In this document: piece after piece, positions 19,793 through 37,317 of the stretch | How the letters are laid out: every line of letters starts with the position of its first letter | Numbering within the stretch: the stretch's first letter is position 1 | DNA from: a virus | UHGV virus genome: UHGV-0109738 | DNA length: 64,000 nt | Direction: 5' to 3' (one strand) | Made by a program: the position numbers and the translations under genes | Notes under the pieces: model-generated | Seen by the model: the letters and a program-made list of their open reading frames with translations, nothing else | Told to the model about the DNA's origin: nothing | The model's database searches: none

Positions 19793-19820
19793 AAAAAACG
19801 GGGCTTATGCCCCGTTTTTT
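19793..19820. terminator. Bidirectional rho-independent terminator
   Basis: aaaaaa-cggggc-ttat-gccccg-tttttt: A-run and T-run flank a perfect GC stem. Confidence 0.65.
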
Positions 19821-22800: not shown

Positions 22801-24789
22801 GCTTTTAACCACAGCGCCGTCGGCGTTATACACGCGAATCTCAAAGGTCAGGCGACGCGTTGTCGTCTGTGTTTCCCATGTTGCGCGACATTGAACCGTT
22901 TCAGATCCAACGTTTAACACCTTCAGATTTTCAATGTTCGGCACGCGGAAGTGATTAAGCGTGTCGTTATTGATCTCGAAGATTGCGCCATTATCGACTA
23001 CGGCCTGCTTATGTGGATCATGCTGTGCGGCCTCGATGGTGTATACGCTGTTATTTTCTGTTTCTGCTACGCTGGTGATTCGACATAAAACGGGTTTTGC
23101 TGCGTTGGTTGATACAGCAAAAACAGTACCGTTACGAATCCATGCCGGGGCGGATGCAAGGGTAATTTTGTTTCCGCTAACTCCAGTGATCTGGTGTTTT
23201 TTAAACTTGCCATCGCTATCAAGCAGGCTGATCGTATCTCCAGCGGAGATATATTTGGCATCAACCTTGTCTACAGTTATTACTTTGCCATTGTTCGCAA
23301 CGATGCGACCGCCTAAGCGAGCGCCTGCGCGGTTATTGTCCAGGATTTCGATAATATCACCTGGCGTAAAGTGAATCGCGTCACGGGCCATTTTAAACGT
23401 GAATTTTGACGGCTCGCGTTTTGCTGTTTCTATCAGCCATTTGCCAGCGCGGTACGCTTGCCCGCGTGACGTGCAACCGAAAGCCTCTAGCGTGGTTTCG
23501 TTATAACCATCGCGGGCGATCAGTTCATCGTCTGCCACGTATTCTTTTGATTGCTCCCAGCCGTTTTCCGGGTCAGTCCATGACACAATCACGGCGTTGT
23601 AAGATTCTGCGCGGGCAATACTTGAACGAGTAAACGCGCCATCAACTACGTTTGCATTTGTAATGGTGGCGATTGGATCTTGTGGCGCATCAATCATCAC
23701 GGTAAGGCGCTGCCCGTCCCATAATGCAATACCACGGAACATGCCTGCAATATTATCCAGTAAGTCGCGTGCGCTAATTTGTTCCGTGATGTAAGCATTA
23801 AGCGTCATGCGAGGTTCAAAGCCGCCGTAACCATCGCTAACCAACTGATCGCAGTATTGGGAAAGCGTATATAATGCGCCATCGTCAACATCAATGTAAC
23901 CAGCGTGGCGAGCAAGTCCGAAACGTTCATTTTTAACCAGATACCGGAAAAGCCATGCAGGGTTATTGGTGTACGCTTTTTTAAATCCACCAAGCCATAA
24001 ACCGGAATACGTGCGCGTTTCAGGGTTATAGTTGTCCGGCACATCAACAATCAGTCCGCGCAGATGATAAGTGCGGGCAGGAGTATCAGTATACTGGTCA
24101 TGGTCAATTACCGCGCCAGCTACAGCGGTATGAGGGTAAGACAGGTTATCGTCGATTATCTCGCTGTAACTGCTCCACCGCGTATCATTACGAAGAAGAT
24201 CGCTTTTGCTGTCTGGCGTTACGCGACGAACGCGAATATCAAACGGCTTTTCATCCGGTGCGTTGATAACGTGAGCTTCCAGGTATTCACCACTCTGTTT
24301 ACCAGGCCCGATCGTAATGTCTTTAACCAGCGACCACGTCGATGATGATGATGGCTTAACATCAACCATTAACATGACTGACGTGTTATATTGATTGCCC
24401 TTATCATCTGACTGAACTAGAGCATCAACGCCAACATTCAATCTAACGCGGGTGACGTTTGGGTCTGAAACGGTCCTGATTATTGGCGTATCGTGAGTTA
24501 CCTTCGCATTGACAATAACAGTTGATTCAATGGCGTTAAAACCGTTAATCGGTGATTGGTCAGCTGTGCCATTGCGCCACGCTATACTTACCCCAGGGAT
24601 TGACGTATTTCCGTTGGCGTCAGTAACAGGCGTGTCATTAAGCATCACATCATTTAATGGCGCTTTCTGGTTTACCGGGCCGTATATCGGCCCCTCGCTG
24701 AGAATGTCTAAAACACGATAAAACTGTTTATGATACAGGTTATCGTTCAATAAATGTGGTGTTTTGGCTTTGCCGCCGCCGCTACTCAT
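19819..24789 (-). CDS. Host specificity protein J-like central tail fibre, extended (1656 aa)
   Basis: N-terminal ~900 aa have gpJ-like organisation; followed by tandem coiled-coil repeats (D.SV.RLDKAIADE.SAR..AIS.VNASIS.LD) and a C-terminal receptor-binding region. Confidence 0.85.
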   Translation of the reverse strand: MSSGGGKAKTPHLLNDNLYHKQFYRVLDILSEGPIYGPVNQKAPLNDVMLNDTPVTDANGNTSIPGVSIAWRNGTADQSPINGFNAIESTVIVNAKVTHDTPIIRTVSDPNVTRVRLNVGVDALVQSDDKGNQYNTSVMLMVDVKPSSSSTWSLVKDITIGPGKQSGEYLEAHVINAPDEKPFDIRVRRVTPDSKSDLLRNDTRWSSYSEIIDDNLSYPHTAVAGAVIDHDQYTDTPARTYHLRGLIVDVPDNYNPETRTYSGLWLGGFKKAYTNNPAWLFRYLVKNERFGLARHAGYIDVDDGALYTLSQYCDQLVSDGYGGFEPRMTLNAYITEQISARDLLDNIAGMFRGIALWDGQRLTVMIDAPQDPIATITNANVVDGAFTRSSIARAESYNAVIVSWTDPENGWEQSKEYVADDELIARDGYNETTLEAFGCTSRGQAYRAGKWLIETAKREPSKFTFKMARDAIHFTPGDIIEILDNNRAGARLGGRIVANNGKVITVDKVDAKYISAGDTISLLDSDGKFKKHQITGVSGNKITLASAPAWIRNGTVFAVSTNAAKPVLCRITSVAETENNSVYTIEAAQHDPHKQAVVDNGAIFEINNDTLNHFRVPNIENLKVLNVGSETVQCRATWETQTTTRRLTFEIRVYNADGAVVKSYETTNYSYDFYGIDSGTYSLGIRGRNDTGMKGAESIVDLVIGAPAAPIGVNWVPGVFQATVYPISRTTLTTDTSYEFYYSGETQITDPASVTTKAQYTGRGHQWTFGGMNTGHIYYVYVRTRNAFGVSDFVEASGKPTENFDEITDYVTKDVMNSKQFKEMVGDIKDLGDRTDLIESATNDLKTATDNLKTATDNLTNITDDLRTETDNLTIETGSIKADTDTLKKETEDLYKKVKENADDIGQHESRIDSLEVSSEKVGSELAQAKASLQNASLALINNSLAQTNTRVTLTAQYKKGRTETKAEIDRIDNVIAEEKKATAESLETITAEMNVMDTNLKGQISNVQRAVADEASARAEAINGVNASISNLDKKTDASVNRLDRAIADETSARTQAISDVNASISTLDKKTDASVKRLDKAISDETQARSDAITVVKADLTTLENNTNASVSRLDQAIADESSTRAQAISGISASLGSVKSEVDKNSDEIVQAKAGLQNASLALINNSMAQSKMSTVIEAKYRKGQRKTKAEIARVDTAIADEASARAEAISNVNASVSSLESKTDASVSRLDKAIADEASARAEAISGVNASISTLDSKVTSNVTRMDKAIADEKNARTDAISSLNSSLTSTINSKVSEVSTALSTHETSSAEKFGQISASFDDVNSSITEWSQAMATADEALSTRIDQLKVTINGNTTAIETTSKALTDFKGNVDASYSIKIATDKNGMKYATGMSLGLTGSGTNVQSQCIFLVDRFVLMTAAGGSYQTPFYVTNGACYIRDAWIRDASITTAKIAQQIQSTNYKAGSAGWMLNKNGNAEFNNVTVRGTVYATSGKFTGEIQATSGKFKGTVEAKSFVGDVANMGVGPDRVLGHNGSYSATITYKDSTDNALTKSVMLMATISLMSGEYRSTYNVTFSCGDKNKTISYYVPYGGCTLTVQCAFSGLKASDIIGKIYCPQTSSSEGYAYCTALYSPTMIVARGTGSFRTSTTA
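20930..21780. repeat. Tandem ~99-bp coding repeats inside the J-like gene
   Basis: Near-identical blocks such as gcttctgcgcgtgcgctcgcctcatctgcgattgc recur at ~99-bp spacing (e.g. around 21057 and 21156), with diverged copies up to ~21780. Confidence 0.6.
22140..22300. repeat. Short-period coding repeats inside the J-like gene
   Basis: Repeating ~21-bp units (gttgtcagt..cagtt..) encoding TDNLKTATDNLKTATDNLTNITDDLRTETDNLT. Confidence 0.5.
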
Positions 24790-24802
24790 GGTTTTTCTCC
24801 TG

Positions 24803-25333
24803 TTAACTTACAACGTCTAATGCATCTCTGTTGTTGCTTGTGTCTATGCCTAACGATCCGACGTTTGAACCTATTTTCATTTCACCCAACAGGATTGGCA
24901 CTGGTCTACCCTGGCCTACCTTGTTTTCAACGCTGGTGTAGGTGTTGTTCGTTATGGTGTTATCTTGTGCGCTTTCTGCTGACGTCTTTATCTTCAGGTT
25001 GCGAGACATAAAGATCGAGAACGCAACGCTAACCACTGAAACACCAATCAAGATCCAACCCACAACACCAATCCCCGCAATACCACCTTCAACTACTGGA
25101 GCAATAATGATGGTTGTTCCGTCAGGGTATTTACTGTTAACCGCTGCTGGCGCGGTCTTTTCGTCATAATCTTTTCCGGCAATTCGTAAGCGCAAAGGTG
25201 TATTTAAAAAAGCCTTCTTGAACTCCTGATCCTGCGCGGTCAATAGGCTAAGTCCTTGCGCTGGCGTATCAACGTTTAAACACACTTTGCCGTAATATCT
25301 TCGAAGATTGCCCGTAAATCTAAATTTGAGCAT
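24803..25333 (-). CDS. Tail assembly protein I
   Basis: 176 aa; C-terminal GQGRPVPILLGEMKIGSN motif and hydrophobic segment typical of lambda gpI. Confidence 0.75.
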   Translation of the reverse strand: MLKFRFTGNLRRYYGKVCLNVDTPAQGLSLLTAQDQEFKKAFLNTPLRLRIAGKDYDEKTAPAAVNSKYPDGTTIIIAPVVEGGIAGIGVVGWILIGVSVVSVAFSIFMSRNLKIKTSAESAQDNTITNNTYTSVENKVGQGRPVPILLGEMKIGSNVGSLGIDTSNNRDALDVVS

Positions 25334-26007
25334 TTGTCAGATCTCCATATTGAATGCGTTTGTCGAACATACGCGGGCCGCATTTGCTCGCGGCGGCTTA
25401 GCAGTCCGGCATTGTCATGATGCAAAACAGTGTTATCGCCCAGGAAAATCATCGCGTGGCATGGGTCAGCACCTTTAAACGGCTGGCGGATAATCACGTC
25501 ACCAGGCTGAATGCTTTGCGCATCAACCATGAAAAACCCGTTCAATGGCAGGTTTTTTATGTACAGGTTTTCCCCACGCAGCCACCACCCATCGTGGCGC
25601 TCAAAGTCAGGTAGATCCACGCCGCAAAGGTGATAGGCGTCACGGAAAAGCGAGTAGCAGTCTGTTTTCCCGTGCTCAAATTTACGGCCTAACAGGTGCG
25701 CTACCGGGAGAAACTTTCTCACCCTGCCACCTGAACATAAAAACCACGGCAGGCCGGAAATAACATGCTGTTGTCGATCCCGTGCCGACAATACCAGGGT
25801 ATCATCGGTGTGGGAGTGGAAAACTGCTGTTATAACGCCTAATTCGTCAGCTTTGATATAATCGTCAGGCGAGATTTTAAAGCTGTTGTGCGGCGTTTCA
25901 GACACGTTTAAGCACGGGTAAAAATAATCGTTATCTATCACCAGGCCGCAAACTTCCTCACGCGGGTGTGCTGCTGCATAGCGAATCATTTTATCTTCAA
26001 GCGCCAT
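25276..26007 (-). CDS. Tail tip protein K (MPN/JAB plus NlpC/P60 domains)
   Basis: Start at MALEDK (3 nt after the gpL stop). HSH motif (AVFHSHTDD) and Cys/His NlpC/P60-like residues. Confidence 0.75.
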   Translation of the reverse strand: MALEDKMIRYAAAHPREEVCGLVIDNDYFYPCLNVSETPHNSFKISPDDYIKADELGVITAVFHSHTDDTLVLSARDRQQHVISGLPWFLCSGGRVRKFLPVAHLLGRKFEHGKTDCYSLFRDAYHLCGVDLPDFERHDGWWLRGENLYIKNLPLNGFFMVDAQSIQPGDVIIRQPFKGADPCHAMIFLGDNTVLHHDNAGLLSRREQMRPAYVRQTHSIWRSDKCSNLDLRAIFEDITAKCV

Positions 26008-26009
26008 AA

Positions 26010-26714
26010 TCAACCCACCTTGCTTGATCCTGGGAAACATGAAATTGGTAACGGATTCGGGCGCGGAAAACGCAAACGGCAACCGCTTAGGCGGTGGCTG
26101 CATTTATCCAGCTTTGGATCGCTTGTCGATTCGTCTTTGTCAGTAGCTACAGGGCCGCCACTATATCCGCAACCGTCGCCGCGATATTGCCACTGGCAAA
26201 CGTCAGCGAGGATTGTGCGCCCAGGGATAACCGCTTTATCAGCATCAATTGGCGTTGACAGTTCATATTGCACCTGGTCCGCTGTTTCTTCGCTCATCGC
26301 TTCAACGACGTAAAAAGACACAGCCTCAATAGATGGATCTGCATCTGGATTGCCGTTGGGGAAGTTAACGGCGTCCAGGTATTTTACTTCCACCTGGCGG
26401 CGAGTAACCTTCATTCCTCGCAGGTCGTTGAAATCGTTATTCATCCCGGTGATTAGCCCGCCAATGTTGGCTACTACCATTTGGGGGCGTGAGTAAACGC
26501 CTTCGTTTTTCATTTCGAAGCCAGTTGCCTCGATCGGGTAGCTGTTGTAAGCCAAGCCCTTCCAGATAACCTGGCCGTAATAGCCATTCGCGCCGGAATG
26601 GAAGCGGATAACCTCGCCACCCAGGGGCGTAAGGTCCAGCTCAAATAAGTCAATGACCGCGCCGACTCCGGCATCGACGGAATCAATAATCATCTCTCTC
26701 GGAATATTGCGCAT
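26010..26714 (-). CDS. Minor tail protein L
   Basis: 234 aa with C-terminal cysteine cluster (CQWQYRGDGCGYSGG..CSHRLSGC) as in lambda gpL. Confidence 0.8.
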   Translation of the reverse strand: MRNIPREMIIDSVDAGVGAVIDLFELDLTPLGGEVIRFHSGANGYYGQVIWKGLAYNSYPIEATGFEMKNEGVYSRPQMVVANIGGLITGMNNDFNDLRGMKVTRRQVEVKYLDAVNFPNGNPDADPSIEAVSFYVVEAMSEETADQVQYELSTPIDADKAVIPGRTILADVCQWQYRGDGCGYSGGPVATDKDESTSDPKLDKCSHRLSGCRLRFPRPNPLPISCFPGSSKVG

Positions 26715-26805
26715 TTTCTCACCTTGTCATTTTGTGATCTGCGTCACGCTAAATCATACCAAAATGGATTGATCGAGGTTTTTACAATATGTATATTTTA
26801 CTCAA

Positions 26806-27012
26806 ATGAAGGGGAAGTTAACAAAATGGCACAAAGGGCGCGGGATGAACGATAAACTATGGAGACTGACCTTATTTGTGAGTAATGGGCGTGATATCGA
26901 GGCTGAATTCGATAACCCTAGCGACGCCTTAGAAACGTCCATTTACCTATCAGAAAAAGATGATCGCGTCCTGGGCTACCGGATTAAACCGATTAAAAGC
27001 GGGGATCAGTAA
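26806..27012 (+). CDS. Hypothetical protein (moron cassette)
   Basis: Small plus-strand ORF (likely starts at ATG 26845) between minus-strand tail genes L and M. Confidence 0.3.
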   Translation: MKGKLTKWHKGRGMNDKLWRLTLFVSNGRDIEAEFDNPSDALETSIYLSEKDDRVLGYRIKPIKSGDQ

Positions 27013-27013
27013 A

Positions 27014-27364
27014 ATGCAAAAATACCGTCTAGATGTATGGATGGCAGGCAGTAAAGATTGGGAAGGTTACGGATTATATGACAGTTACGAAATGGCAGTC
27101 GAGGAAGGAGAAAAACTTGTTCGCTTCTTCGGGCGCGCCAGGGAATTCAAAATAACTCAGGTACAAATAGATGAGAAGGTGGAAGATATGAACCCGAAAG
27201 ATATTAACTTTAACGTCAATGTTAATTTTGCTGACTCTATGGATCAGTCTTGCCCTGGTGAAATACACGCAAAGGGTTTCCCGGCTGATGATCCTGATGC
27301 AAAACGCGAATACGAAAAAGCGGCAAAAGATTTCTGTATCGACAATTTAAGTTGCTTTGATTAA
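27014..27364 (+). CDS. Hypothetical protein (moron cassette)
   Basis: Start at MQKYRL, 2 nt after the previous stop. Confidence 0.35.
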   Translation: MQKYRLDVWMAGSKDWEGYGLYDSYEMAVEEGEKLVRFFGRAREFKITQVQIDEKVEDMNPKDINFNVNVNFADSMDQSCPGEIHAKGFPADDPDAKREYEKAAKDFCIDNLSCFD

Positions 27365-27369
27365 AAATT

Positions 27370-27855
27370 ATGAAATGGTACAACATCTTTACTTATAATG
27401 AAGGGAAATTATTCTGGAAGATACCAACAAGCGGTAGAATTACCAACGGCAAGGAAGCCGGAAGTTTGCACAACGGGTATATTGTTATCTGTGTGCAAAA
27501 TAAAAAGTATAAGGCACACAACATAATTTGGGAAATGCACAACGGCCCGATCCCAGAAGGGTATGTGATTGACCATATAAACCATATAAGGAGTGATAAC
27601 AGAATATAAAATCTAAGAATGATAACAAAACAAGAAAACATGAAAAATATGCCGTTATCCAGAAGGAATAAGAGCGGGTGCATTGGCGTATGGTGGAATG
27701 AAGCGAATAAAAAATGGATTGTAAGAGTGATGATTAGTGGGGTGTATCGGCATATAGGGTGTTTTAATAGCTACCTTGATGCGTGTAACGCCTCAAAAGA
27801 AGCGCACGAAATCGGAGGGTACTATAAAGAACATGGCGCGGCGCAATCACAGTGA
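27370..27855 (+). pseudogene. HNH-AP2 homing-endonuclease-like gene interrupted by in-frame TAA
   Basis: 27370-27609 and 27619-27855 are in the same frame, separated by TAA at 27610-27612 exactly where the HNH motif DNR-E-NLR expects Glu (reads DNRI*NLR). Downstream half has an AP2-type motif (GCIGVWWNEANKKWIVRV..HIGCFNSYLDACNA). Confidence 0.6.
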
Positions 27856-28081
27856 TTATGTATACACGTTGAAACAGGCCGCCCGCCTTATCGGTTATCA
27901 TGAACACGAATTTATTGATTTGCTGATTGAGCGCGGGATACTGTACCAGGTCTGCTTAACGCTGTACCCTAAAGCGAAATACCTACAGGAAAAGTTATTT
28001 ATCATCATGACGGATGAAAACCAGGTTAATCACTCATTCGTCACTGATAAGGGATTGACATATTTGAAGGGGGCGTTATGA
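27833..28081 (+). CDS. Hypothetical protein (possible KilA-C/antirepressor-like C-terminal motif)
   Basis: Start at MARRNHSDYVY; C-terminal FVTDKGLTYL resembles KilA-C-type motifs. Confidence 0.3.
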   Translation: MARRNHSDYVYTLKQAARLIGYHEHEFIDLLIERGILYQVCLTLYPKAKYLQEKLFIIMTDENQVNHSFVTDKGLTYLKGAL

Positions 28082-28156
28082 GATGTGCGAACATTACGTT
28101 CTGGAAATGATCATTATCATTATTGGATTGTCATGCATTCTGCTATCGACACTATA

Positions 28157-28184
28157 AACCCCGCCGTGGCGGGGTGTTTTTTTT
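28157..28184 (+). terminator. Rho-independent terminator of the plus-strand moron cassette
   Basis: aaccccgcc-gtg-gcggggt followed by tttttttt. Confidence 0.6.
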
Positions 28185-28365
28185 AATCGTAGGATAGAAA
28201 TGCTACTTCTTTGCCATCCCAAGTCGTACAGCCGATATATCCATCACCCATATCATGAAGATACCACGTCTCGCCATTATCAGCCCGGACAGTAAGATCA
28301 TTAATTTCATAGTCGGCGAACAATGTAAAAGCGCCAGTGCGCTCCACTACACAAAAATAAGGCAT
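28183..28365 (-). CDS. Small hypothetical protein (60 aa)
   Basis: Short ORF just downstream of gene M on the same strand. Confidence 0.3.
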   Translation of the reverse strand: MPYFCVVERTGAFTLFADYEINDLTVRADNGETWYLHDMGDGYIGCTTWDGKEVAFLSYD

Positions 28366-28376
28366 ATCCCCTCCCT

Positions 28377-28730
28377 CTAATTAATAACTTGCTCAAATGT
28401 TGCATTTAGCGTGTATAGCGGACCGTCTTTAGTCATGCTCCAGCTACGGCAAACAAAAAGCCTTTGCACGTTATCCATCGACGGCGACCAGTAAAAAGCC
28501 TCGACAGCGCCACGCGCCCTCAAGAATGCTTCCGCCTGGATCGCTACATTCCCACCATCGCCGCATCCTGCACTACTGCCTTTAAAAACCAGGGTGTAAC
28601 TATCAAGTAATGTGTTAATCCCTTTCGCCTGGCGTTGTTCATACCCATCACCAAGTTTAATGACAGATACGTTTGGTTCCCTGGTCACGCTGTAGCTTCT
28701 TTGCGGCGTCCATCTGAACACTTCCGGCAT
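28377..28730 (-). CDS. Minor tail protein M
   Basis: 117 aa at the gpM position between tape measure and gpL; typical size. Confidence 0.7.
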   Translation of the reverse strand: MPEVFRWTPQRSYSVTREPNVSVIKLGDGYEQRQAKGINTLLDSYTLVFKGSSAGCGDGGNVAIQAEAFLRARGAVEAFYWSPSMDNVQRLFVCRSWSMTKDGPLYTLNATFEQVIN

Positions 28731-28897
28731 AAAACCCCCACAAGTTACATTTTGTATATATCTTTACGCGCTTCTACGCGAAAAATGAGATCTTTGTCAC
28801 AATGATTATAGCTAGTTTACAAAATGGCTTCACGTAGCATGCAACAAGATGTATATAGAAAGCAAGAAGAAAGCAGTACCAACGAAGGAGGCCCAAA

Positions 28898-29053
28898 ATG
28901 AAACGCTATGTAGTAGTAATGCTAAATAACGCATTCGAACAAGTGGAAATAGCAATCGTTAAGGGTTTCGACGACGCATTCAAATACGGTCAATTCATGA
29001 TGAATGCGAAAGAAGATGAATACCGGGACTTCTTCCTGAAGGCACTTAACTAA
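28898..29053 (+). CDS. Small hypothetical protein (51 aa), first gene of a three-gene plus-strand cassette
   Basis: GAAGGAGG RBS upstream of ATG 28898. Confidence 0.3.
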   Translation: MKRYVVVMLNNAFEQVEIAIVKGFDDAFKYGQFMMNAKEDEYRDFFLKALN

Positions 29054-29070
29054 GGATGATGGGGTGAGTT

Positions 29071-29325
29071 ATGAAACTGGTAGCGATTGACAAAAACCTG
29101 AAAGCACAGAAAAACGCGCCGGAACGTGTAGTTAAAAAAGCAAGGGAGCTTTTGAACGCGTTTTTAAACAAGGATGTGTCGCCCAAAAAATTAAAAGACG
29201 GTTACGGCTACGCCTTCCGCGCCAATTTAGACTGGCGAGTCTATAGCCAGGATCTGAAGGAGTGGGTGATTGTTGAACATCATAAATTTAATGAATTATC
29301 TGGCGTGCGCGGTTGCCATAAGTGA
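29071..29325 (+). CDS. Hypothetical protein (84 aa; faint RelE/ParE-like C-terminal pattern)
   Basis: C-terminus LKDGYGYAFRANLDWRVYSQDLKEWVIVEHHKF loosely resembles the RelE-type ..G.YRLRVGDYRVIY...VV.V..VGHR pattern; weak. Confidence 0.3.
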   Translation: MKLVAIDKNLKAQKNAPERVVKKARELLNAFLNKDVSPKKLKDGYGYAFRANLDWRVYSQDLKEWVIVEHHKFNELSGVRGCHK

Positions 29326-29435
29326 GTCGGGATATGAAGGACGATAAATTCACCTGGCGTGAGATCTGGAACATCTGGTTAGTGATGTCCAGTAGGAGTT
29401 ACATCGCACGTAACGGCAGACTGTAGGAGAAAAAA

Positions 29436-29618
29436 GTGATTATTGAAGAAACAAAACGTTGTTATGGTGTCCGGTTAGATCTTGAAAATGATGTATTGTG
29501 GATAACCGAACTTATGGGGACTGACACCATCGTGATTGACAAGTCGCAGGCTGTACAGCTTATTGCTGGACTACAAAAGTTTGTTGATGGTGAGTTTAAA
29601 AACGAAGAGGTAGACTAA
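29436..29618 (+). CDS. Small hypothetical protein (60 aa)
   Basis: Third ORF of the cassette; followed by hairpin ggccact-ata-agtggcc and a T-rich tract. Confidence 0.3.
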   Translation: MIIEETKRCYGVRLDLENDVLWITELMGTDTIVIDKSQAVQLIAGLQKFVDGEFKNEEVD

Positions 29619-29647
29619 GAAAAAGGCCACTATAAGTGGCCTTAGTG

Positions 29648-31990
29648 TTATTTGCGGCGCGGTTGCAACATTCCGCCCGGTCTTTGAGATTCCCTTGTTA
29701 TCATCTTCATAGCTACACGTTCCATTGTCTGTTCAAGTCTGCGGCTGTCTTCGTCGCTGAATCCGTTCGTTGTCTGAATGCTGATACTGACAGGCATACT
29801 AATACCGCCACCGCCGCCAATATCACGGCCCGGAATAACTCTGCCGTTCTCGCCAGGAATCATATATTGATTCCCGTTAGGCGTCTGGAATAGCTCCGTC
29901 CTGTTGTTTTCCCCGACACGGTACAAGTTGCCACCAATGACGCTACCACCATTAAAGCGCCTGCCACCGAAGATGGATGTTGCCAGAGACATGATCGCAG
30001 TGAGTGCCGCAGAGCCAGCCGCCGCCCAGCTACCGCCAGTTGATGCTGCTGTTGCCGCCGCTGCCGGGGCCGCTGCCGCAGCGATGCTACCCTGAGCGGC
30101 TACCGCACTTGCCGTTGTGCTGGCCTGCGTTGCCTTGCTTTGTGTCTCCATCATGATTTGATCTGCTATCCAGTTGGCGGCTATGTCAGAAAGCCTGTTG
30201 CCGATGTTCCCTAGTATATTGCTCCCTAAGTTAGCAAAAACATCGCTCAATGATTGAGTGCCGTTAAGCAGGCCAACAAGCGCATTGCTCATGCCACCTT
30301 TAAGGCCATTAACGCAATCACCGATAAGGCCGTTAGTGTCGCTTTGCGCCTGCCACTGCTCCCATTTCAGATCGCGGATCTGCTGCTCATAGGCTAACAA
30401 TTCCTGTTTCTGTTGTGCTTCTGTAGCGCCCAGGTCGATAAGCATTTGCTTACGGACGGCCCATTCATTTTGTGCCTGCTGGATGGGGTCAACCTCGCCT
30501 TTTAGCTGGTCCATCGGGCTAACTATTTGCGACCATTTATCACGCAGTTCATCTACCGGGATCTGCGCTAATTCTTCTTTCAGTTCCTTGCCGATCCCTT
30601 TTTGCGCGGCGCGGTACTCAAGGAGCGTGATTTTACCCTGGGCAAATGCAGCATCAATGGCCTTGCCGTTCTCCAACGCTTTGCGCATGGCGGCGGCGTC
30701 TTTGTTGTACTGATCAGAAACGCTTATACCTTTGTCACCAAGCCGATCAGCTTCCGATTTCTTCTCTTTTTTCTGTTTTTTCGGCTTGTCTACTGGCTTG
30801 TCGAATCCGGTAATCGCTCCGTCATTGGCAGCATTCTGTTCATTTTTCCTTGCTTCTTCTGTAGCCTGGATTGCTGCGGTCAGATCATCCTGTAGTTGCA
30901 TGACCTTGCCAACGGTCTTCCCGTATTTCTTCTCGTAGTTGCTGTTATATTCGTCGGTTTGCTCTCCTACTACCTCCTTCACCCATTTATAGCCATCCAT
31001 TAGCGCCTTGATTGGCGTCACCATTGCGATGATCTTCTCTGCCACCTCTCCAGCCTTAACAGCCACATCATCAAACATGTCGATAAATTCGCTACCAGCC
31101 GTTTTGAGTGTGTCGAAGCAGGTTTTAGCGAATTTAGCGCCATCGCCAAGCCCTTTAACGCCTTTCGTGATCAAGTCGATAGCTGAAACAACGCCATCTG
31201 ACACGCCAAAAAGATCATCCAACTGCTCAACAAGGCCCATAATTTCTACTTTAAGCTCATTGATAGCCATGCCGGATGTGCGCGGCAACTGAGCAAACTT
31301 ATCGTTTGTTTCCTGCGTAGCCGCCTGTATTGCGTTAACCATCCTTTCAGCCGTGATCTTGCCGTCCAGCATTTCGGCGCGGAACTGGCCCATTGATAAT
31401 CCCATATGGCGGGCCATTGTTTGTACGATGGTCGGCGTGTTTTCAAGCAGGCTGTTAAATTCTTCGGCACGAAGAACACCGCCGTCGATAGACTGACGGA
31501 ATTGACGCATTGAGTTAGACATCTGTTCCGCTGACGCGCCGCCTAATGCACCCATTTTCTGAATAGTGCCAACCAGGTTAAGCAATTGCCCTTCCGTAGC
31601 GGAGGTGTTTTTTAGTGAGATAGCCAGGCCTTGCCATAATTCGCCAGTATCTTTCAGGCTCTGCCCCGTCTCCCTGGATATTTCTTTCAGACCATCAAAA
31701 ACCCGCCCGGCAGATTCCGCGTCGCCTGTAAGCATTTTGATTTTGACGCGTAGCATTTTGGCCTGCTCTGCCATTTCCATAAACTGTCTAACGGCCTCGG
31801 CAGCAATTAGCAGATGGATAACCCTGGTCAGTGCTTTGATTGATGTTTTCAGTGTGTTTACCTGGCGATCGGCCTGTTTAGCACCGCGCTCTATACGGTC
31901 AAAGGCCTGGTCTGCCTGTCGTTGTGCTACAAGAAGTTGTCCTGTTTTTGCGTCAACTTCGTAATAAATTGTGCCTACACTGGTAGCCAT
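29648..31990 (-). CDS. Tail tape measure protein
   Basis: 780 aa, highly helical with Ala/Gly-rich segments; located between tail chaperone and gpM homologues. Confidence 0.85.
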   Translation of the reverse strand: MATSVGTIYYEVDAKTGQLLVAQRQADQAFDRIERGAKQADRQVNTLKTSIKALTRVIHLLIAAEAVRQFMEMAEQAKMLRVKIKMLTGDAESAGRVFDGLKEISRETGQSLKDTGELWQGLAISLKNTSATEGQLLNLVGTIQKMGALGGASAEQMSNSMRQFRQSIDGGVLRAEEFNSLLENTPTIVQTMARHMGLSMGQFRAEMLDGKITAERMVNAIQAATQETNDKFAQLPRTSGMAINELKVEIMGLVEQLDDLFGVSDGVVSAIDLITKGVKGLGDGAKFAKTCFDTLKTAGSEFIDMFDDVAVKAGEVAEKIIAMVTPIKALMDGYKWVKEVVGEQTDEYNSNYEKKYGKTVGKVMQLQDDLTAAIQATEEARKNEQNAANDGAITGFDKPVDKPKKQKKEKKSEADRLGDKGISVSDQYNKDAAAMRKALENGKAIDAAFAQGKITLLEYRAAQKGIGKELKEELAQIPVDELRDKWSQIVSPMDQLKGEVDPIQQAQNEWAVRKQMLIDLGATEAQQKQELLAYEQQIRDLKWEQWQAQSDTNGLIGDCVNGLKGGMSNALVGLLNGTQSLSDVFANLGSNILGNIGNRLSDIAANWIADQIMMETQSKATQASTTASAVAAQGSIAAAAAPAAAATAASTGGSWAAAGSAALTAIMSLATSIFGGRRFNGGSVIGGNLYRVGENNRTELFQTPNGNQYMIPGENGRVIPGRDIGGGGGISMPVSISIQTTNGFSDEDSRRLEQTMERVAMKMITRESQRPGGMLQPRRK

Positions 31991-32141
31991 GATTTAACCT
32001 CATGCAAAATGTGATCTATGCATCTATTTTATACAAAATGTCTTTATTTTAACGATACCGTTTTGTATAGATGATGTAGAGAAAGATAGAAGAGATGCAG
32101 GAAGGCCGGATGTCCCGGAGGAAGTGAAAGAGGATAAGAAA

Positions 32142-32225
32142 ATGAGAAACGTAAACTACCGTCCCAACGAATATGAACGCTATGCGGACCTTATCGAAGA
32201 AATGTTAAAAGCACTTAAAAAATAA
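32142..32225 (+). CDS. Mini-ORF (27 aa)
   Basis: GAGGATAAG RBS-like sequence; MRNVNYRPNEYERYADLIEEMLKALKK; directly upstream of the secreted-protein gene. Confidence 0.25.
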   Translation: MRNVNYRPNEYERYADLIEEMLKALKK

Positions 32226-32293
32226 ACAATATGCGTGTATAACTAAGTTAAAGGAAGCATTTAGCAAATCAGAATAATTACAGGGGGTTGATT

Positions 32294-32713
32294 ATGAAAC
32301 GGTTAGCAAAAATGGTGCTTGCTGTGATTGCTGCACTAGCATTTAACGCTAACGCTAACGCTAACGAGGCCATAAACATTAACTGTGAAGAAGTGGCAAA
32401 CCATGTAGCCGCATATCACGACATGATCAAAAAAGAACCAGCCGCACCCACAATTCTTTTTAAGGCAATTGATAAAAATTTTGAAGGTAAACCAGTTTAT
32501 GCTCGTTGGTTTAATTATGGCCTTGTAAACGAGGCTGCTGTAGGCGTAGTCTTTGAAAACAACAGCGAAATAAAAAACAGGATAGCTAACGAGTGTAAAG
32601 CAAATAAAGTTGCTTTCGCTGAAAGAATTTTTAATAAAGGCGGCGCTGGTGCAAAAAATCACGCAATTGTCGATTTAGGTAACGGTTTTATTGATATTGT
32701 TAGAATCAAATAA
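32294..32713 (+). CDS. Secreted protein of unknown function (moron)
   Basis: AGGGGG RBS; signal peptide MKRLAKMVLAVIAALAFNANA with tandem aacgct x3 (NANANA); terminator follows. Confidence 0.5.
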   Translation: MKRLAKMVLAVIAALAFNANANANEAININCEEVANHVAAYHDMIKKEPAAPTILFKAIDKNFEGKPVYARWFNYGLVNEAAVGVVFENNSEIKNRIANECKANKVAFAERIFNKGGAGAKNHAIVDLGNGFIDIVRIK

Positions 32714-32720
32714 GACAAAC

Positions 32721-32742
32721 GCCCGGATCTACCGGGCTTTTT
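32721..32742 (+). terminator. Rho-independent terminator
   Basis: gcccgg-atctac-cgggc followed by tttttc. Confidence 0.6.
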
Positions 32743-33415
32743 CTTGCTTGCGATTTTCCATTCTTTTTAGCGCCTTTTTAGCAGCCTCCATTTGCTCGTC
32801 ATAAGCACGTTTATTTATGTGAACATTTGGTCTACTTCTTTCATTTCTTTCGTCTGGCGGCGTTTTAGCGCGCACTGCGGCCCTGTATCCGGTCATTGTC
32901 ATGTTCCACGCTTCTGATTCAGATAATCCCAGATGAGCAACGGCAGAATAAACGAAATCAAGTACATCAAATGTCGGCTTGTATTCACCTTCCCGGATCT
33001 CGCTTGTATTTTCTTCCGGCCCGTCACCGATTAAACCGTGGTACATGCAGTGTTGCGCCAGCGTAATAACATCATCAACTGGCATTATTCCGGGCTTTAA
33101 CCTTAATTTGCCCGAAGGAGTAAACCAGCATTCGCCCAATAACGGGCCTGTTTCGTCGTCTGAGCAACATTTCAGGATGTGCATTGACGTTTGCACTATC
33201 CCACCATAACACCGCGCCATAATGCGATTGCGGAGGTCTGGATCTGTAGGTAATCGTGAAGGGTATTTGCTACCGTGGATGGTTGCGAAATATTCCACAA
33301 GCTCCCTGTCATTACCGATTTTAGCCATCGCAGCGAAACACGGGTTAAATTCATAGCGCTTACCGTTCACCATAGCCACAAATTGTCCGGTACGAACATG
33401 AATCATAGTCTTCAC
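32729..33415 (-). CDS. Tail assembly chaperone (G/GT-like)
   Basis: Position between major tail protein and tape measure; 228 aa with basic C-terminal tail; no obvious slippery site found by eye. Confidence 0.45.
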   Translation of the reverse strand: MKTMIHVRTGQFVAMVNGKRYEFNPCFAAMAKIGNDRELVEYFATIHGSKYPSRLPTDPDLRNRIMARCYGGIVQTSMHILKCCSDDETGPLLGECWFTPSGKLRLKPGIMPVDDVITLAQHCMYHGLIGDGPEENTSEIREGEYKPTFDVLDFVYSAVAHLGLSESEAWNMTMTGYRAAVRAKTPPDERNERSRPNVHINKRAYDEQMEAAKKALKRMENRKQEKAR

Positions 33416-33451
33416 CCTAAAAGAAAGGGGGCTAAATAGCCCCCTTATTGT

Positions 33452-33928
33452 TTACGCAGCAACCGGATCGGTTACAGTTACCTGGCCAGCGCTTTCGCAC
33501 TCGATAGACCAGGTCGTCACATCATCATACGGAGCCTCTTCTTTGAAGGAGGTGCAAAGGAATGGCCCCTCGGTTACATCGGTGGCACTGACAATTTTCA
33601 GCCACACATATGGTTGATTTCCGGTAGCAGTGCCCGGAGACATTACATGCCGTTTTAGTGCTTTCTGGTTGTATGTATCATCGCTACGTGAAACACCATC
33701 ACCAGAGAAGCTCACTGATTTATAAGTAACCAGCGACTCTTTGGTATAGTCGGCGGATTTATCAGCGGTAGCGTCTGCGGATTCCCATTCTACGGAAAGC
33801 GTTTTGCCGCGCATCATACCTAACGGCTTGTAGCCACCCTCTTCCGGTTTCGCGCTGGGACAAGCAATGGCATAGAACACGGCAACATCACGCCCGGTAA
33901 ACGCACCGGATTTACAGGTTTCGGACAT
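33452..33928 (-). CDS. Major tail protein
   Basis: 158 aa; immediately upstream of the chaperone and tape measure, the conserved tail-module order. Confidence 0.6.
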   Translation of the reverse strand: MSETCKSGAFTGRDVAVFYAIACPSAKPEEGGYKPLGMMRGKTLSVEWESADATADKSADYTKESLVTYKSVSFSGDGVSRSDDTYNQKALKRHVMSPGTATGNQPYVWLKIVSATDVTEGPFLCTSFKEEAPYDDVTTWSIECESAGQVTVTDPVAA

Positions 33929-33941
33929 ATTGGTTTACCTC

Positions 33942-34328
33942 TTATCTGGATATGATGGATTGAAAAGCTACGGTAAAAATAAAGCGCCCTTCTCTTGTCT
34001 GCATCGCAGGAATAGCGCCAACTGGCTTCATGTGTGTAATTTTATCAGTTTTATATTCTGTTAACATACTTTGACGGATGGCATCGGCCAGGTCTTCCAC
34101 TTCACAGATATTTGCATCATTACGCGCTGAAATAACCAGGATGCGAAAATAATCACGGGTTATTGCTTCTTCACCAGCCGCGCCGCCGTTTTGCTGGATA
34201 ACAATGTATCGGTCGTTATTCGAATTGGATTTTTCATTCCAGAAACGGGCCTGCAAAATATAGCCTTTATCGTACCCGTGGGATTTAATCCAATCCCTTA
34301 TTTCGTCGTATACTTCGCTGCGTTTCAT
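33942..34328 (-). CDS. Tail component (tail terminator/completion-like)
   Basis: 128 aa; ATGA-type overlap with upstream gene; position between head-tail joining genes and the major tail protein. Confidence 0.4.
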   Translation of the reverse strand: MKRSEVYDEIRDWIKSHGYDKGYILQARFWNEKSNSNNDRYIVIQQNGGAAGEEAITRDYFRILVISARNDANICEVEDLADAIRQSMLTEYKTDKITHMKPVGAIPAMQTREGRFIFTVAFQSIISR

Positions 34329-34789
34329 GTTTTGTAACCTTCTACAATCTCTTTATAAATATCGTCGGCGTTGTTTGGATCTTCGAATGCCTTGCGCAAG
34401 AATTCCGGCTCCGCGTTTGGGTCCCAATATTTACCTTTGCCAGTACCGCCGCCGAACTCAATTACCTGTTTCGGCCCGAAATCTGAAAGGTTATTTGTTT
34501 TCCCGAAATGTTCACGCGGCTGGCCTTTTAATGTGCCTGGCATATTGTGCACCCATTCAGCGTAACGGGCTGTATATCCCAGCCGTAACTGCATACCCTC
34601 CGCCGTGTTACCTATATATTGAAATTGGCTGTTAATTAAAAAACCCGTATCAACCGGTGTCATGTTTGCCGCAAAGCCACCAGCCAGCATACCGACGCGC
34701 CATAAAACTTCGTGCGTCTTTTTATCGGTGATTTCCTTTAGCTCCTGCTTTAATCTCTCACGGACGCGTTTAACTCCCCTGATAGGCAT
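34325..34789 (-). CDS. Head-tail joining protein (HK97 gp10-family-like)
   Basis: 154 aa; motifs TGFLINS...YARYAEWVH; position in morphogenesis module. Confidence 0.45.
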   Translation of the reverse strand: MPIRGVKRVRERLKQELKEITDKKTHEVLWRVGMLAGGFAANMTPVDTGFLINSQFQYIGNTAEGMQLRLGYTARYAEWVHNMPGTLKGQPREHFGKTNNLSDFGPKQVIEFGGGTGKGKYWDPNAEPEFLRKAFEDPNNADDIYKEIVEGYKT

Positions 34790-34791
34790 GA

Positions 34792-35160
34792 TTAACCCCC
34801 TGTCACGATCTTATAATCCGGCGTATCGTTAAACATGCTCATATCCCATTCAACGATCCCGGTAATAATGTTGGCTCCTGCCGCCATCGGGTCGGTAATA
34901 TTGGTGGTGTCACCAGTGGCAATCATCCAGCCGTTTTCCGGGCGCTGTACTGGCTGCATATTATGAAGCAGTTCGGTAAATACGGTTATTGTATTGCTAA
35001 CCTCATTACCGTTTGTGTCTGTTGCAGTGCCGTCGGTGCGCTCCCATGCGCAGTTAATCAGGTATGGTGCGCCGTATACGTCGGCGTTTGTCCAGTCGTC
35101 ATGCGTTACGGGGTAGATGGTGGCTAATGCCTTGTAACTGAATCGCGCAATCTTACTCAT
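34792..35160 (-). CDS. Head-tail adaptor / head closure protein (putative)
   Basis: 122 aa; position downstream of connector gene. Confidence 0.35.
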   Translation of the reverse strand: MSKIARFSYKALATIYPVTHDDWTNADVYGAPYLINCAWERTDGTATDTNGNEVSNTITVFTELLHNMQPVQRPENGWMIATGDTTNITDPMAAGANIITGIVEWDMSMFNDTPDYKIVTGG

Positions 35161-35344
35161 AGCCGTAACTCCAGCTAATGACCTTTGGATGAGTTTTCGC
35201 CACGCGCGGGCAAAGAATTACCCATAAGCCAGCATCATTGAGGTAGGCCGCCACCTGGCGTCCGCTATCCGTTTTAACCCACACGCGGGTAAATGGTTTC
35301 GGCAATACTGGATTTGGTAATGTCAGGTCGTTCCACATTGTCAC
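35153..35344 (-). CDS. Small hypothetical protein (63 aa)
   Basis: Overlaps neighbours by a few nt in the structural operon. Confidence 0.3.
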   Translation of the reverse strand: MTMWNDLTLPNPVLPKPFTRVWVKTDSGRQVAAYLNDAGLWVILCPRVAKTHPKVISWSYGYE

Positions 35345-35727
35345 ACCCTCCTGCTCTTACCAATCCACAGCCCGGCGTGCGCGGTGTTTTCTGGATCTGG
35401 TGGAATTAGTTCGGCTGTACAATGGTGTTTGTCCAGTGAGTAAAGCAACGAATAGGCCGCCTTCCATCGCTTATTAAAATCGACATAGCGGTATGACTGA
35501 CTCGCACCGTTCGGCCCAGTCTGCGAGGAAACGTATTTATCAGCCTGGCTTAGTCCTAACAGGCCAATCAGATAAAGCTGAATCAATGTTGCAGTGGAGG
35601 CCGGATAGTTGGCATCAAGGCATTCATTAACGCTATTTGCCTGCTCCACCAGCAAAGATAAGATAACGTCTGGCAGGTCAATACCCTGGCTTTCAATATA
35701 TTCCCGCGCCTGTTCTGTAGTGACCAT
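35341..35727 (-). CDS. Head-tail connector (gp6-like) protein
   Basis: Start at MVTTEQ; helical, with LIQLYLIGLLGL motif typical of gp6-like connector proteins. Confidence 0.45.
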   Translation of the reverse strand: MVTTEQAREYIESQGIDLPDVILSLLVEQANSVNECLDANYPASTATLIQLYLIGLLGLSQADKYVSSQTGPNGASQSYRYVDFNKRWKAAYSLLYSLDKHHCTAELIPPDPENTAHAGLWIGKSRRV

Positions 35728-35792
35728 TTTGTTTTCTCCACATACAAAAAAATCCCCGGCATCGCGCCGGGGAGTTACAGGAAACATATCAA

Positions 35793-36857
35793 TCAGGTAT
35801 TGCTGCCGTAGACCACACCTGAACGACCTTTCATATCACAGGTGATCTGAAGACCCTCAGCAGACATAATGCGGAAGTTGTAGTTATCGGTCGGCATCAT
35901 GCGCGGTAACGGAACTACGCCAGTGGTCATGCCAATCAGCGGGGTGATGACGCCGCGACTACGCTGATAAGCGATAAATTCGTTGTCAGTCAGCGCATAG
36001 GTCTGGCGAATATCATCAACCGGGACAAACGGCTTGATAACATCCAGTACACTACCAACAATTACGCCATTAACGATGTGTGGGCGTGCCAGGTTAGCCA
36101 TGATTTCTGGCGATACCCACATTACATCGTATTTAGCTACGAAGTTGGCGCGGGCCAGTTTCCCGAACTCACCAGTGGTAAAGAATTCAATAATCTTATC
36201 GAAAGTCGCGGTGGTCAGGTCGATTTTAGCGACAGTTTTCAGTTTAAGTTGCTGGGTGTTTTTGTGGTTTTTAAGACCCATTGCTTTATGACCATCAACC
36301 ACGATGCGATCGTTACCATTCAGGTAGAACTGGACGCGTGCTTTGTTGAATTTTTTCAGTTTAAGGCGCTGGCTGTCTAATGCAAGGTCGATGCCTACAG
36401 TATTTAAGCCCTGAGCTAAACGCCAGTTAACACCGTAACCCGCTGCGAACATCGGGATCGGGTCGCCATCGCTGCCGTATTCGGTGTGATCAAAGCCGTG
36501 TGGCGCTTGACCATCCATAGACATCACAACTTCATCATCGATGTCACCGGATACGTTGTACATTTTCAGCGTTTTACCGATTGGCAGTACGGTTTGCACA
36601 CCCATCAGGTCGTTTACGATCTCAATACCGATTTCTTCGGTGTTCAGTTCGATAATCTGGTTATCGATTTCTTTCCAGAATTCTTTTGCGAAGCCGCCGA
36701 CGGCGTTACAGGTCAACATTTCAGCGGTCATATTTGCCTGATTTGCAGCAATCATGGCGTTGTGCTGCTCGTTGAAGATATTGCGTTGCGCCCACAGTTC
36801 TTTCCAATGGCCCTGCATACGGGCGTTGGTGGCAAGGTTTTCTTTTGTAAAGTACAT
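35793..36857 (-). CDS. Major capsid protein (putative)
   Basis: 354 aa; size and position (after scaffold/decoration-like genes, before connector). Confidence 0.6.
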   Translation of the reverse strand: MYFTKENLATNARMQGHWKELWAQRNIFNEQHNAMIAANQANMTAEMLTCNAVGGFAKEFWKEIDNQIIELNTEEIGIEIVNDLMGVQTVLPIGKTLKMYNVSGDIDDEVVMSMDGQAPHGFDHTEYGSDGDPIPMFAAGYGVNWRLAQGLNTVGIDLALDSQRLKLKKFNKARVQFYLNGNDRIVVDGHKAMGLKNHKNTQQLKLKTVAKIDLTTATFDKIIEFFTTGEFGKLARANFVAKYDVMWVSPEIMANLARPHIVNGVIVGSVLDVIKPFVPVDDIRQTYALTDNEFIAYQRSRGVITPLIGMTTGVVPLPRMMPTDNYNFRIMSAEGLQITCDMKGRSGVVYGSNT

Positions 36858-36874
36858 GTTTTTCCCCTTTTAAA

Positions 36875-37303
36875 TTAAGCAACGCGAACGCGGATAAAAT
36901 CTTCCGCCTCCAGGGTTACGTCTTCCTGGCAGTATGCGATGATCGGATCTGGCGCTGCCTGTTCACTTGGCGCAACAAACAGTTTCACCCCGTCGGCTGC
37001 GAGAGCAATAGCTGCACCCTTAACATAAGCGGCTGCAGGAACAAGGAGAGCAAACTCTCGGCCCTGTTCCACATAATCAGCAACAACAGTTTCATTTGCA
37101 GCGATTGCATCAGTAATGGTTTTGCCTTCGTGGAATGCCGGGTTGACGATGTACAACTGAGCTGCACCGACATCAGCACTGGTTGCTTTTGCAAACTTAC
37201 CTCCGTCCAGTTTTACCAGTTCACCTGGTTTTACTGCGACCTTAGCAGTGTAGGTTTCGGTAATGGATTTACCATCAATATTTACACGACGAAAACGAGA
37301 CAT
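36875..37303 (-). CDS. Head decoration / minor head protein (putative)
   Basis: 142 aa Ala-rich protein immediately upstream of the capsid gene. Confidence 0.4.
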   Translation of the reverse strand: MSRFRRVNIDGKSITETYTAKVAVKPGELVKLDGGKFAKATSADVGAAQLYIVNPAFHEGKTITDAIAANETVVADYVEQGREFALLVPAAAYVKGAAIALAADGVKLFVAPSEQAAPDPIIAYCQEDVTLEAEDFIRVRVA

Positions 37304-37317
37304 TGTATTCCCTCCAG

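Follow-up and report, generated by a model that had tools for sequence, protein, structure and literature searches.

The toxin-antitoxin (TA) systems YefM-YoeB, RelBE, DinJ-YafQ and HigBA offer the closest described comparison for a cassette of small genes that we analysed in the virus genome UHGV-0109738, in a stretch of 64,000 nucleotides (nt), one strand, that we call the window. The core of this cassette is the second of its open reading frames (ORFs), ORF2 (29071-29325, plus strand), which starts with ATG and encodes a basic protein (isoelectric point, pI, 9.8) of 84 amino acids (aa), the length of E. coli YoeB, and whose predicted structure combines, as in the toxins of these systems, a helix, a three-stranded sheet and a C-terminal helix. 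Directly upstream of it stands a small acidic gene, ORF1 (28898-29053, plus strand; ATG start, 51 aa, pI 5.1), an order also known from yefM-yoeB and relBE. The YoeB/RelE group supplies the best structural neighbours of the ORF2 model and, like ORF2, has a conserved arginine in a central strand and conserved histidine and aromatic residues near the C-terminus. The resemblance has limits, however: ORF2 has no significant sequence similarity to any member of the group; ORF1, with only 51 aa, differs from YefM and RelB in having no detectable Phd/YefM, RelB/ribbon-helix-helix (RHH) or helix-turn-helix (HTH) domain; losses of the upstream gene are tolerated in nature; and the family of ORF2, Pfam PF24732, has spread mainly through phages, virulent ones included.

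Prophages of E. coli O157:H7 carry another small TA system, PaaR2-PaaA2-ParE2, whose regulator gene paaR2 has no equivalent in the cassette; compared with PaaA2-ParE2 and ParDE, the predicted structure of ORF2 lies further from ParE than from the mRNase branch, and our results give no pointer to gyrase. Phage proteins of PF24732 and PHROG 1525, among them Klebsiella phage K64-1 gp471 (named 'YafQ-like ribonuclease toxin') and members in RaK2, fHe-Yen9-04 and Sortsne, share with ORF2 the hidden Markov model family, a similar predicted structure (TM-score 0.7-0.8) and the motif K/R-L...R...H-x-x-[YF]-[ND]. In virulent phages these genes are early or lysis-proximal and stand behind genes for proteins of about 116-125 aa, whereas ORF2 belongs to an antisense moron of a temperate phage and follows the 51-aa ORF1. 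In its position the cassette recalls gp15 of HK97, which is reportedly a superinfection-exclusion moron beside the tape measure gene, encoding a membrane protein and co-oriented with the tail genes. Like morons of that type, it is a low-GC accessory block beside a siphophage tape measure gene, with its own putative transcription and with content that varies among syntenic phages; unlike gp15, it is antisense, consists of several genes and has a core gene with a predicted RelE fold. We tentatively propose that ORF2 is a ribosome-associated mRNA endonuclease, that ORF1 is a dispensable, antitoxin-like modulator of it, and that the two genes that follow, orf2b and ORF3, are independent cargo.

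ORF2 matches PF24732 ('ParE_like') at 34.0 bits, against a gathering cut-off of 24.4, with an E value of 3e-08 and coverage of profile positions 2-66 of 67; it also falls into phrog_1525, and all 14 of the ORF2 relatives scanned match PF24732 as well. Homologues in related E. coli prophages are named 'ParE family toxin-like protein' by the NCBI annotation pipeline PGAP. Close homologues, all of 84 aa and 60-93% identical, form a subfamily that is narrow, because an exhaustive representative search with the ORF2 profile gave only 12 proteins; distant members are 22-39% identical, and a scan of genome contigs with ORF2 found no relative. Sequence searches of the ORF1, ORF2 and ORF3 proteins against chains of the Protein Data Bank (PDB) returned only noise, with no match detectable for ORF2 even when the family profile was included. 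Structure prediction was more informative. We discarded a first AlphaFold2 model built from 11 close homologues (mean predicted local distance difference test score, pLDDT, 62.5), and the final model, from a 25-sequence alignment, has a pLDDT of 85.3 and a predicted TM-score (pTM) of 0.71. It shows a beta-hairpin, a helix at residues 18-32, three strands and a second helix at residues 70-77, the predicted arrangement of a RelE/ParE fold. When searched with Foldseek, the model had as its top matches only toxins of the RelE/ParE superfamily, led by YoeB of S. aureus and E. coli (probability 0.96, TM-score 0.48), with HigB, YoeB, YafQ and RelE ranked highest and ParE lower, and among the viral models of BFVD it matched family members from virulent phages at TM-scores of 0.7-0.8. 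We therefore assign ORF2 to the RelE/ParE superfamily, with the ribosome-dependent mRNases, not ParE, as the nearest branch as judged from the model. An earlier reading of this stretch, made from the letters alone (the sequence-only reading), had noted a weak RelE/ParE-like C-terminal pattern in the middle protein, and was right at the level of the superfamily, the affinity being closer to YoeB, HigB, YafQ and RelE than to ParE.

From temperate to virulent members of PF24732, the conserved residues are K/R40, L41, R56, H70, Y/F73 and N/D74 (ORF2 numbering). A set of lysine, arginine, histidine and aromatic residues is typical of RelE-type RNases and not of ParE, and in YoeB the catalytic constellation is E46/R65/H83/Y84. 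ORF2 itself is under purifying selection, with a ratio of nonsynonymous to synonymous polymorphism (pN/pS) of 0.20. As a separate observation, some ORF2 homologues in public data lose the reading frame, the breaks lying at three sites, after residue 23, residue ~34 and residue 39 (proteins P0012, P0013 and P0073; window 29130-29200); the third break is located at the Pro-Lys-Lys codons, where the window carries the run CCCAAAAAATTAAAAG. These breaks suggest recurrent inactivation of a slippage type.

To place ORF2 in its genomic context, we compared 53 related loci drawn from phage records, E. coli genomes and IMG/VR contigs, among which 43 different cassette sequences occur; pN/pS values were pooled over related loci, with shifted frames as the control and gene M of the tail operon (0.12) for reference. 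ORF2 is the invariant core of the island, present in 53 of 53 loci, and ORF1 is its usual companion, found upstream in 50 of them at a constant distance of some 20 nt (17 nt in the window). A putative toxin gene thus adjoins a small partner with which it is co-conserved, as in type II TA systems. The strongest constraint in the island falls on ORF1 (pN/pS 0.07), and the shifted-frame values for ORF1 and ORF2 are 1.0-3.2. ORF1 (phrog_29810) has 57 homologues, with identities of 76% or more over the aligned parts, and a search of 50,697 phage records placed it in the mEp021 group alone. Its Shine-Dalgarno sequence GGAGG (28887-28891, plus strand) ends 6 nt before the ATG and is kept in the relatives that carry ORF1. 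One locus (L030), which also has the gene set of the window, is 100% identical to the window at the protein level in ORF1, ORF2, M and the C-terminus of the tape measure protein.

The genes downstream of ORF2 behave differently. At 29334-29426 (plus strand) lies orf2b, which encodes a Trp-rich basic peptide of 30 aa (MKDDKFTWREIWNIWLVMSSRSYIARNGRL; pI 10.3), or of 34 aa if translation starts at an in-frame GTG at 29322. It is present in 33 of the 53 loci, at times displaced by inserted genes, is annotated as a coding sequence in phage MagusPhagus, and has a pN/pS of 0.12 in the 26 loci with an ungapped match, versus 1.3-1.4 in shifted frames. ORF3 (29436-29618, plus strand; 60 aa, pI 4.3, phrog_13627) follows an AGGAG placed 6 nt upstream and starts with GTG in the window versus ATG in relatives; it occurs in 23 of the 53 loci as optional cargo, has remote relatives in Shigella phage DS8 and in Salmonella phages INT55 and INT59, and shows a pN/pS of 0.35, the shifted-frame control having been computed for the other genes only. 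A 58-aa gene is found after ORF2 in 24 loci, and other cargo includes a 95-aa membrane protein, a 49-aa gene, an HNH endonuclease (mEp515) and zinc-ribbon proteins (mEp021), giving 15 gene combinations in total; the exact gene set of the window is present in three loci, and 13 of the 53 have ORF1 and ORF2 alone, in an island of 517 nt. The genes orf2b and ORF3 are thus independently shuffled cargo. In mEp515 (L005, 3117-3623) and in locus L042, the gene for a 168-aa HNH endonuclease lies between ORF2 and orf2b and overlaps the end of ORF2, and homing endonucleases may contribute to the shuffling of the island.

These results bear on several points of the sequence-only reading, which had described a three-gene cassette that might act as a TA or small defence module. 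The three genes that it placed on the plus strand between M and the tape measure gene are there, at 28898-29618, and all are under purifying selection, but the count was one short, since it missed orf2b. Conservation as a three-gene unit did not hold, because the genes after ORF2, ORF3 included, are shuffled cargo and only the ORF1-ORF2 pair is constant. The suggestion of a defence module found no backing: none of the four cassette proteins matched the defence models of PADLOC-DB v2 (E up to 10), and NCBIfam searches of the cassette proteins gave nothing useful. The TA suggestion fared in between, with a layout that fits and with ORF1 alleles and family searches that do not, as set out below.

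PF24732 genes are frequent in virulent phages, with 66 phage records from Sortsnevirus, Murrayvirus and jumbo phages of Alcyoneusvirus and related groups (RaK2-like; Yersinia phage fHe-Yen9-04), and are present also in plasmid-like and island-like contexts. They are mostly translationally coupled to unrelated upstream genes, with overlaps of 4-20 nt, and the partners range from a 207-aa ParB-HTH-like protein and a 497-aa DUF5417 protein to proteins of 116-125 aa (about 120 aa in Sortsne and KMB41). The upstream genes of the virulent-phage members have no Pfam family and no convincing similarity to ORF1 or to antitoxins. Individual loci illustrate the coupling. In two enterobacterial contigs (L010 and L014, 3001-3252), a DUF5417 gene (497/498 aa) ends in a 4-nt overlap with a distant PF24732 gene; a 20-nt overlap, with the 207-aa ParB-HTH-like gene, is seen in an island of Enterobacter that also carries AlpA and a broken integrase (L006, 3001-3213); and the large upstream partners in these three loci are unlike any classical antitoxin. 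In Sortsne (L105, 1121-2018) and KMB41 (L107, 441-1357), virulent phages of Sortsnevirus and Murrayvirus, a PF24732 gene overlaps an upstream gene of 120-125 aa by 4 nt, just before the holin and lysin genes. Our literature searches on PF24732, on phage YafQ-like toxins and on prophage ParE-like toxins yielded no title or abstract concerning the PF24732 family, and to our knowledge no member has been characterised experimentally.

With these comparisons in hand, a rough mechanism can be outlined. ORF2 would bind the translating ribosome and cut mRNA in the A site, with K/R40, R56, H70, Y/F73 and N/D74 as candidate cleavage residues, and would slow or arrest translation in some condition that favours the prophage, for example by interfering with a superinfecting phage or by promoting prophage retention. 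ORF1 would be an acidic, lineage-restricted partner that may bind ORF2 and modulate it in the manner of an antitoxin. In favour of such a TA-like arrangement are the layout, the sizes of the two proteins, their complementary charge and the strong constraint on ORF1, and also the repeated pseudogenisation of ORF2 beside an intact ORF1 in E. coli PAR (L003) and in P0012, P0013 and P0073. If ORF2 is active, mEp021-like prophages would carry a RelE-type translation inhibitor expressed from a moron antisense to the tail operon, and lysogen physiology or phage-phage competition could be affected.

A number of results weigh against this proposal, most of them against an obligatory role for ORF1. The antitoxin of a TA pair should not be losable while its toxin is intact and expressed, yet E. 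coli genomes and assemblies contain three independent ORF1-null alleles in which the 84-aa ORF2 is whole and the promoter hexamers are preserved. In E. coli UMNK88 and in IMG/VR contigs L068 and L073, which have since diverged from each other, ORF1 is cleanly deleted and the leader is joined to ORF2, and blastn found no second copy of ORF1 in UMNK88; in E. coli MFDS1019527 a 1-nt deletion shifts the frame at codon 5, with an internal restart possible at Met8; and in P0070/L111, whose ORF2 is 94% identical to that of the window, ORF1 has a stop at codon 32. ORF1 is no obligatory antidote, because lysogens exist in which it is destroyed and ORF2 is intact, and a strongly toxic ORF2 neutralised by ORF1 alone is therefore disfavoured. 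Furthermore, identical ORF1 proteins stand beside ORF2 alleles whose identity to that of the window is 61%, 68% or 94-100%, so no co-variation of the two is seen; a recombination junction lies near ORF2 codons 16-19. ORF1 also falls outside the known antitoxin and DNA-binding families (RHH, Phd/YefM, HTH, AbrB), with no match in Pfam, NCBIfam or PADLOC (E up to 10) and none of any credibility in the PDB (best E 1.1), and among the PF24732 neighbours scanned in virulent phages, plasmid-like contigs and islands there was no known antitoxin family. As for the catalytic residues, the hhalign alignment that sets R56 of ORF2 over the catalytic R65 of YoeB (YoeB sequence verified) is not significant, with a probability of 0.8%. 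A strict addiction-module reading of ORF1 and ORF2 is thereby weakened; the layout is TA-like and the toxicity putative. The natural ORF1-null lysogens provide a ready genetic test of whether a RelE-fold protein works without an antidote.

The ORF1-null alleles lend themselves to a different explanation, which we consider possible although less probable than the one proposed: ORF2 might be a stand-alone, antitoxin-independent RelE-like effector, mildly toxic or conditionally active, that serves translation remodelling or phage-phage and phage-host conflict, with ORF1, orf2b and ORF3 as unrelated genes of a hotspot. Such an effector would fit the three ORF1-null genomes, the missing co-variation, the unrelated upstream neighbours elsewhere and the abundance of PF24732 in virulent phages, for which addiction would be pointless, but it would leave the regular presence of ORF1 at fixed spacing in 50 of 53 loci, the complementary charge and the strongest constraint in the island without a ready account; ORF2 decay with ORF1 kept is also seen, and the usual translational coupling to an upstream gene elsewhere in the family suggests that a partner is the rule and that only its identity changes. 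Extended to the whole family, the ORF1-null loci and the spread through virulent phages raise the idea that PF24732 may have kept the RelE fold while becoming independent of antitoxins, as a phage-borne RelE branch with no dedicated antitoxin, acting as a solo translation-targeting effector in temperate and virulent phages and tempered by unrelated, dispensable partners such as ORF1; this more general claim is, in our view, rather doubtful. The family is widely distributed in virulent and jumbo phages.

Alternatively, the neutraliser could lie on the other side of ORF2, as in HigBA, or be redundant, with orf2b or the strongly acidic ORF3 as the real or back-up antidote. All ORF1-null loci examined do carry orf2b directly after ORF2, and about 30 residues can suffice for a peptide to neutralise a toxin of the RelE type, the C-terminal peptide of RelB (PDB 2kc8) being among the fold matches. 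Three such co-occurrences are expected by chance (p ~0.24), however, because orf2b is present in 62% of loci; moreover, orf2b is itself basic, inserted HNH and other genes can part it from ORF2, and the 13 loci with ORF1 and ORF2 only have no room for a downstream gene, which makes this arrangement very unlikely. Improbable too is a ParE-type pair, in which DNA gyrase would be the target poisoned by ORF2, with ORF1 as a minimal antitoxin that lacks a DNA-binding domain, despite the names given by Pfam and PGAP and despite the precedent of PaaA2, which is said to be a short prophage-borne antitoxin lacking such a domain (PDB 5czf). As a ParE gyrase poison ORF2 fits poorly: in the structural comparison ParE appears more distant than the mRNase branch, ORF2 is shorter than the matched ParE chains (87-95 residues), its last four residues have pLDDT values below 50 and its C-terminal tail is unconserved across the family, the conserved residues are of a kind typical of RelE-type RNases, and the ORF1-null alleles speak against any obligate antitoxin. 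Small sizes, the GTG start of ORF3 and the lack of functional annotation in published phage genomes might finally suggest chance ORFs or decaying remnants antisense to an intergenic spacer. This notion is scarcely credible and is refuted by the selection analysis, because all four genes are under purifying selection while shifted frames of ORF1, ORF2 and orf2b are neutral or worse; ORF1, ORF2 and ORF3 also have plausible ribosome-binding sites, and ORF2 belongs to a curated family. We thus retain, tentatively, the proposal of a ribosome-associated endonuclease with a dispensable modulating partner.

The four small plus-strand genes are antisense to the tail operon and inserted at the junction of M and the tape measure gene, in what is a self-contained moron island with a putative promoter and a bidirectional terminator. 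The GC content of the block, 0.40-0.44, is lower than that of the tail genes on either side (0.48-0.58), with a flip of the GC skew. A putative sigma-70 promoter at 28829-28857 (plus strand) comprises a -35 hexamer TTCACG (28829-28834), a 17-nt spacer and a -10 hexamer TATATA (28852-28857). A strict consensus promoter scan called none for the cassette, because position 6 of the -10 hexamer is not T; in eight related loci both hexamers are kept (TTCAC[AGT], TATA[TC]A) with a variable spacer, and it is plausible that the cassette has its own sigma-70 promoter. At the other end, a hairpin with a 9-bp GC-rich stem (29623-29643) separates the stop of ORF3 from that of the tape measure gene (29648-29650, minus strand). 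Its RNA fold has a free energy of -18.6 kcal/mol (z = -3.7 versus shuffles), and either strand gives a terminator score, the T-run being better for the minus strand, where it follows the tape measure gene, than for the plus strand; where the cargo differs, this junction holds another GC-rich hairpin (for example L068). The terminator-like hairpin noticed in the sequence-only reading is the one at 29623-29643, and the suggestion made there of a moron agrees with the GC dip, the opposite orientation, the putative promoter, the terminator and the variable content among syntenic phages. An Rfam scan of 28300-30000 found no RNA family, and therefore no hint of a known RNA antitoxin.

In the intergenic region between M and ORF1, the stretch 28748-28826 is highly conserved among relatives, ORF1-less loci included. 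It contains a perfect 9-nt inverted repeat, CATTTTGTA / TACAAAATG, with arms 61 nt apart, which flanks a tandem TACGCG-N4-TACGCG motif, and could be an operator or an RNA element, on either strand. With regard to ORF1 itself, a beta-helix-helix pattern resembling RHH was noticed by eye only; no tool result supports it, and we do not claim it.

The window derives from a temperate coliphage prophage of the mEp021 / mEpimmI group, with E. coli as host; window positions 20000-40000 are 84-87% identical to Escherichia phages MagusPhagus, mEp021, mEp010, mEp044, mEp554, mEp515 and mEp013 over 71-86% of their length. The mEpimmI group consists of Nus-dependent temperate coliphages, which the title of the paper describing them calls prevalent in the gut, and the cassette is not discussed there (PMC11893012). 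The genes are already on record in other forms: the family is in Pfam and in NCBI naming, the cassette appears in the published mEp phages as 'hypothetical proteins', and the locus is in this sense an ordinary accessory island whose RelE-like effector gene had already been named by PGAP and Pfam.

The tail operon lies on the minus strand and includes a J-like gene (19819-24789), I, K, L (26010-26714), M and the tape measure gene. The flanking minor tail protein M (28377-28730, minus strand) is of the lambda-M type (PF05939, 98.6 bits), and the 780-aa tape measure protein (29648-31990, minus strand) is identified from the annotation of relatives and from PF20155 (TMP_3) on a 780-aa homologue. 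Directly downstream of M in the operon is a conserved 60-aa ORF (28183-28365, minus strand), hypothetical in mEp021 (mEp021_70) and mEp515 and without a Pfam match.

Two other antisense, low-GC islands interrupt the same operon. The first (26806-28081, plus strand; GC 0.38-0.44) lies between L and M, where relatives have a similar island of variable content. It includes an apparently split HNH_3 homing-endonuclease gene, of which 27370-27609 matches profile positions 1-33 of 46 and 27619-27855 may be the continuation, and a KilAC/ANT antirepressor-like ORF (27776-28081, PF03374); we considered ORF1 as a paralogue of the first gene of this island and found no similarity. The second is a single-gene island (32288-32713, plus strand; GC 0.37) with the tape measure gene on one side and the upstream tail genes on the other, and its 141-aa product has a signal-peptide-like N-terminus (MIMKRLAKMVLAVIAALAFNANANA) and no Pfam match, in a position that recalls the HK97 gp15 exclusion moron. 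Finally, 37 nt at about 39914-39950 of the window are 97% identical to 14 records of Pseudomonas aeruginosa phages (the vB_Pae_CF series), the sole similarity to those phages.

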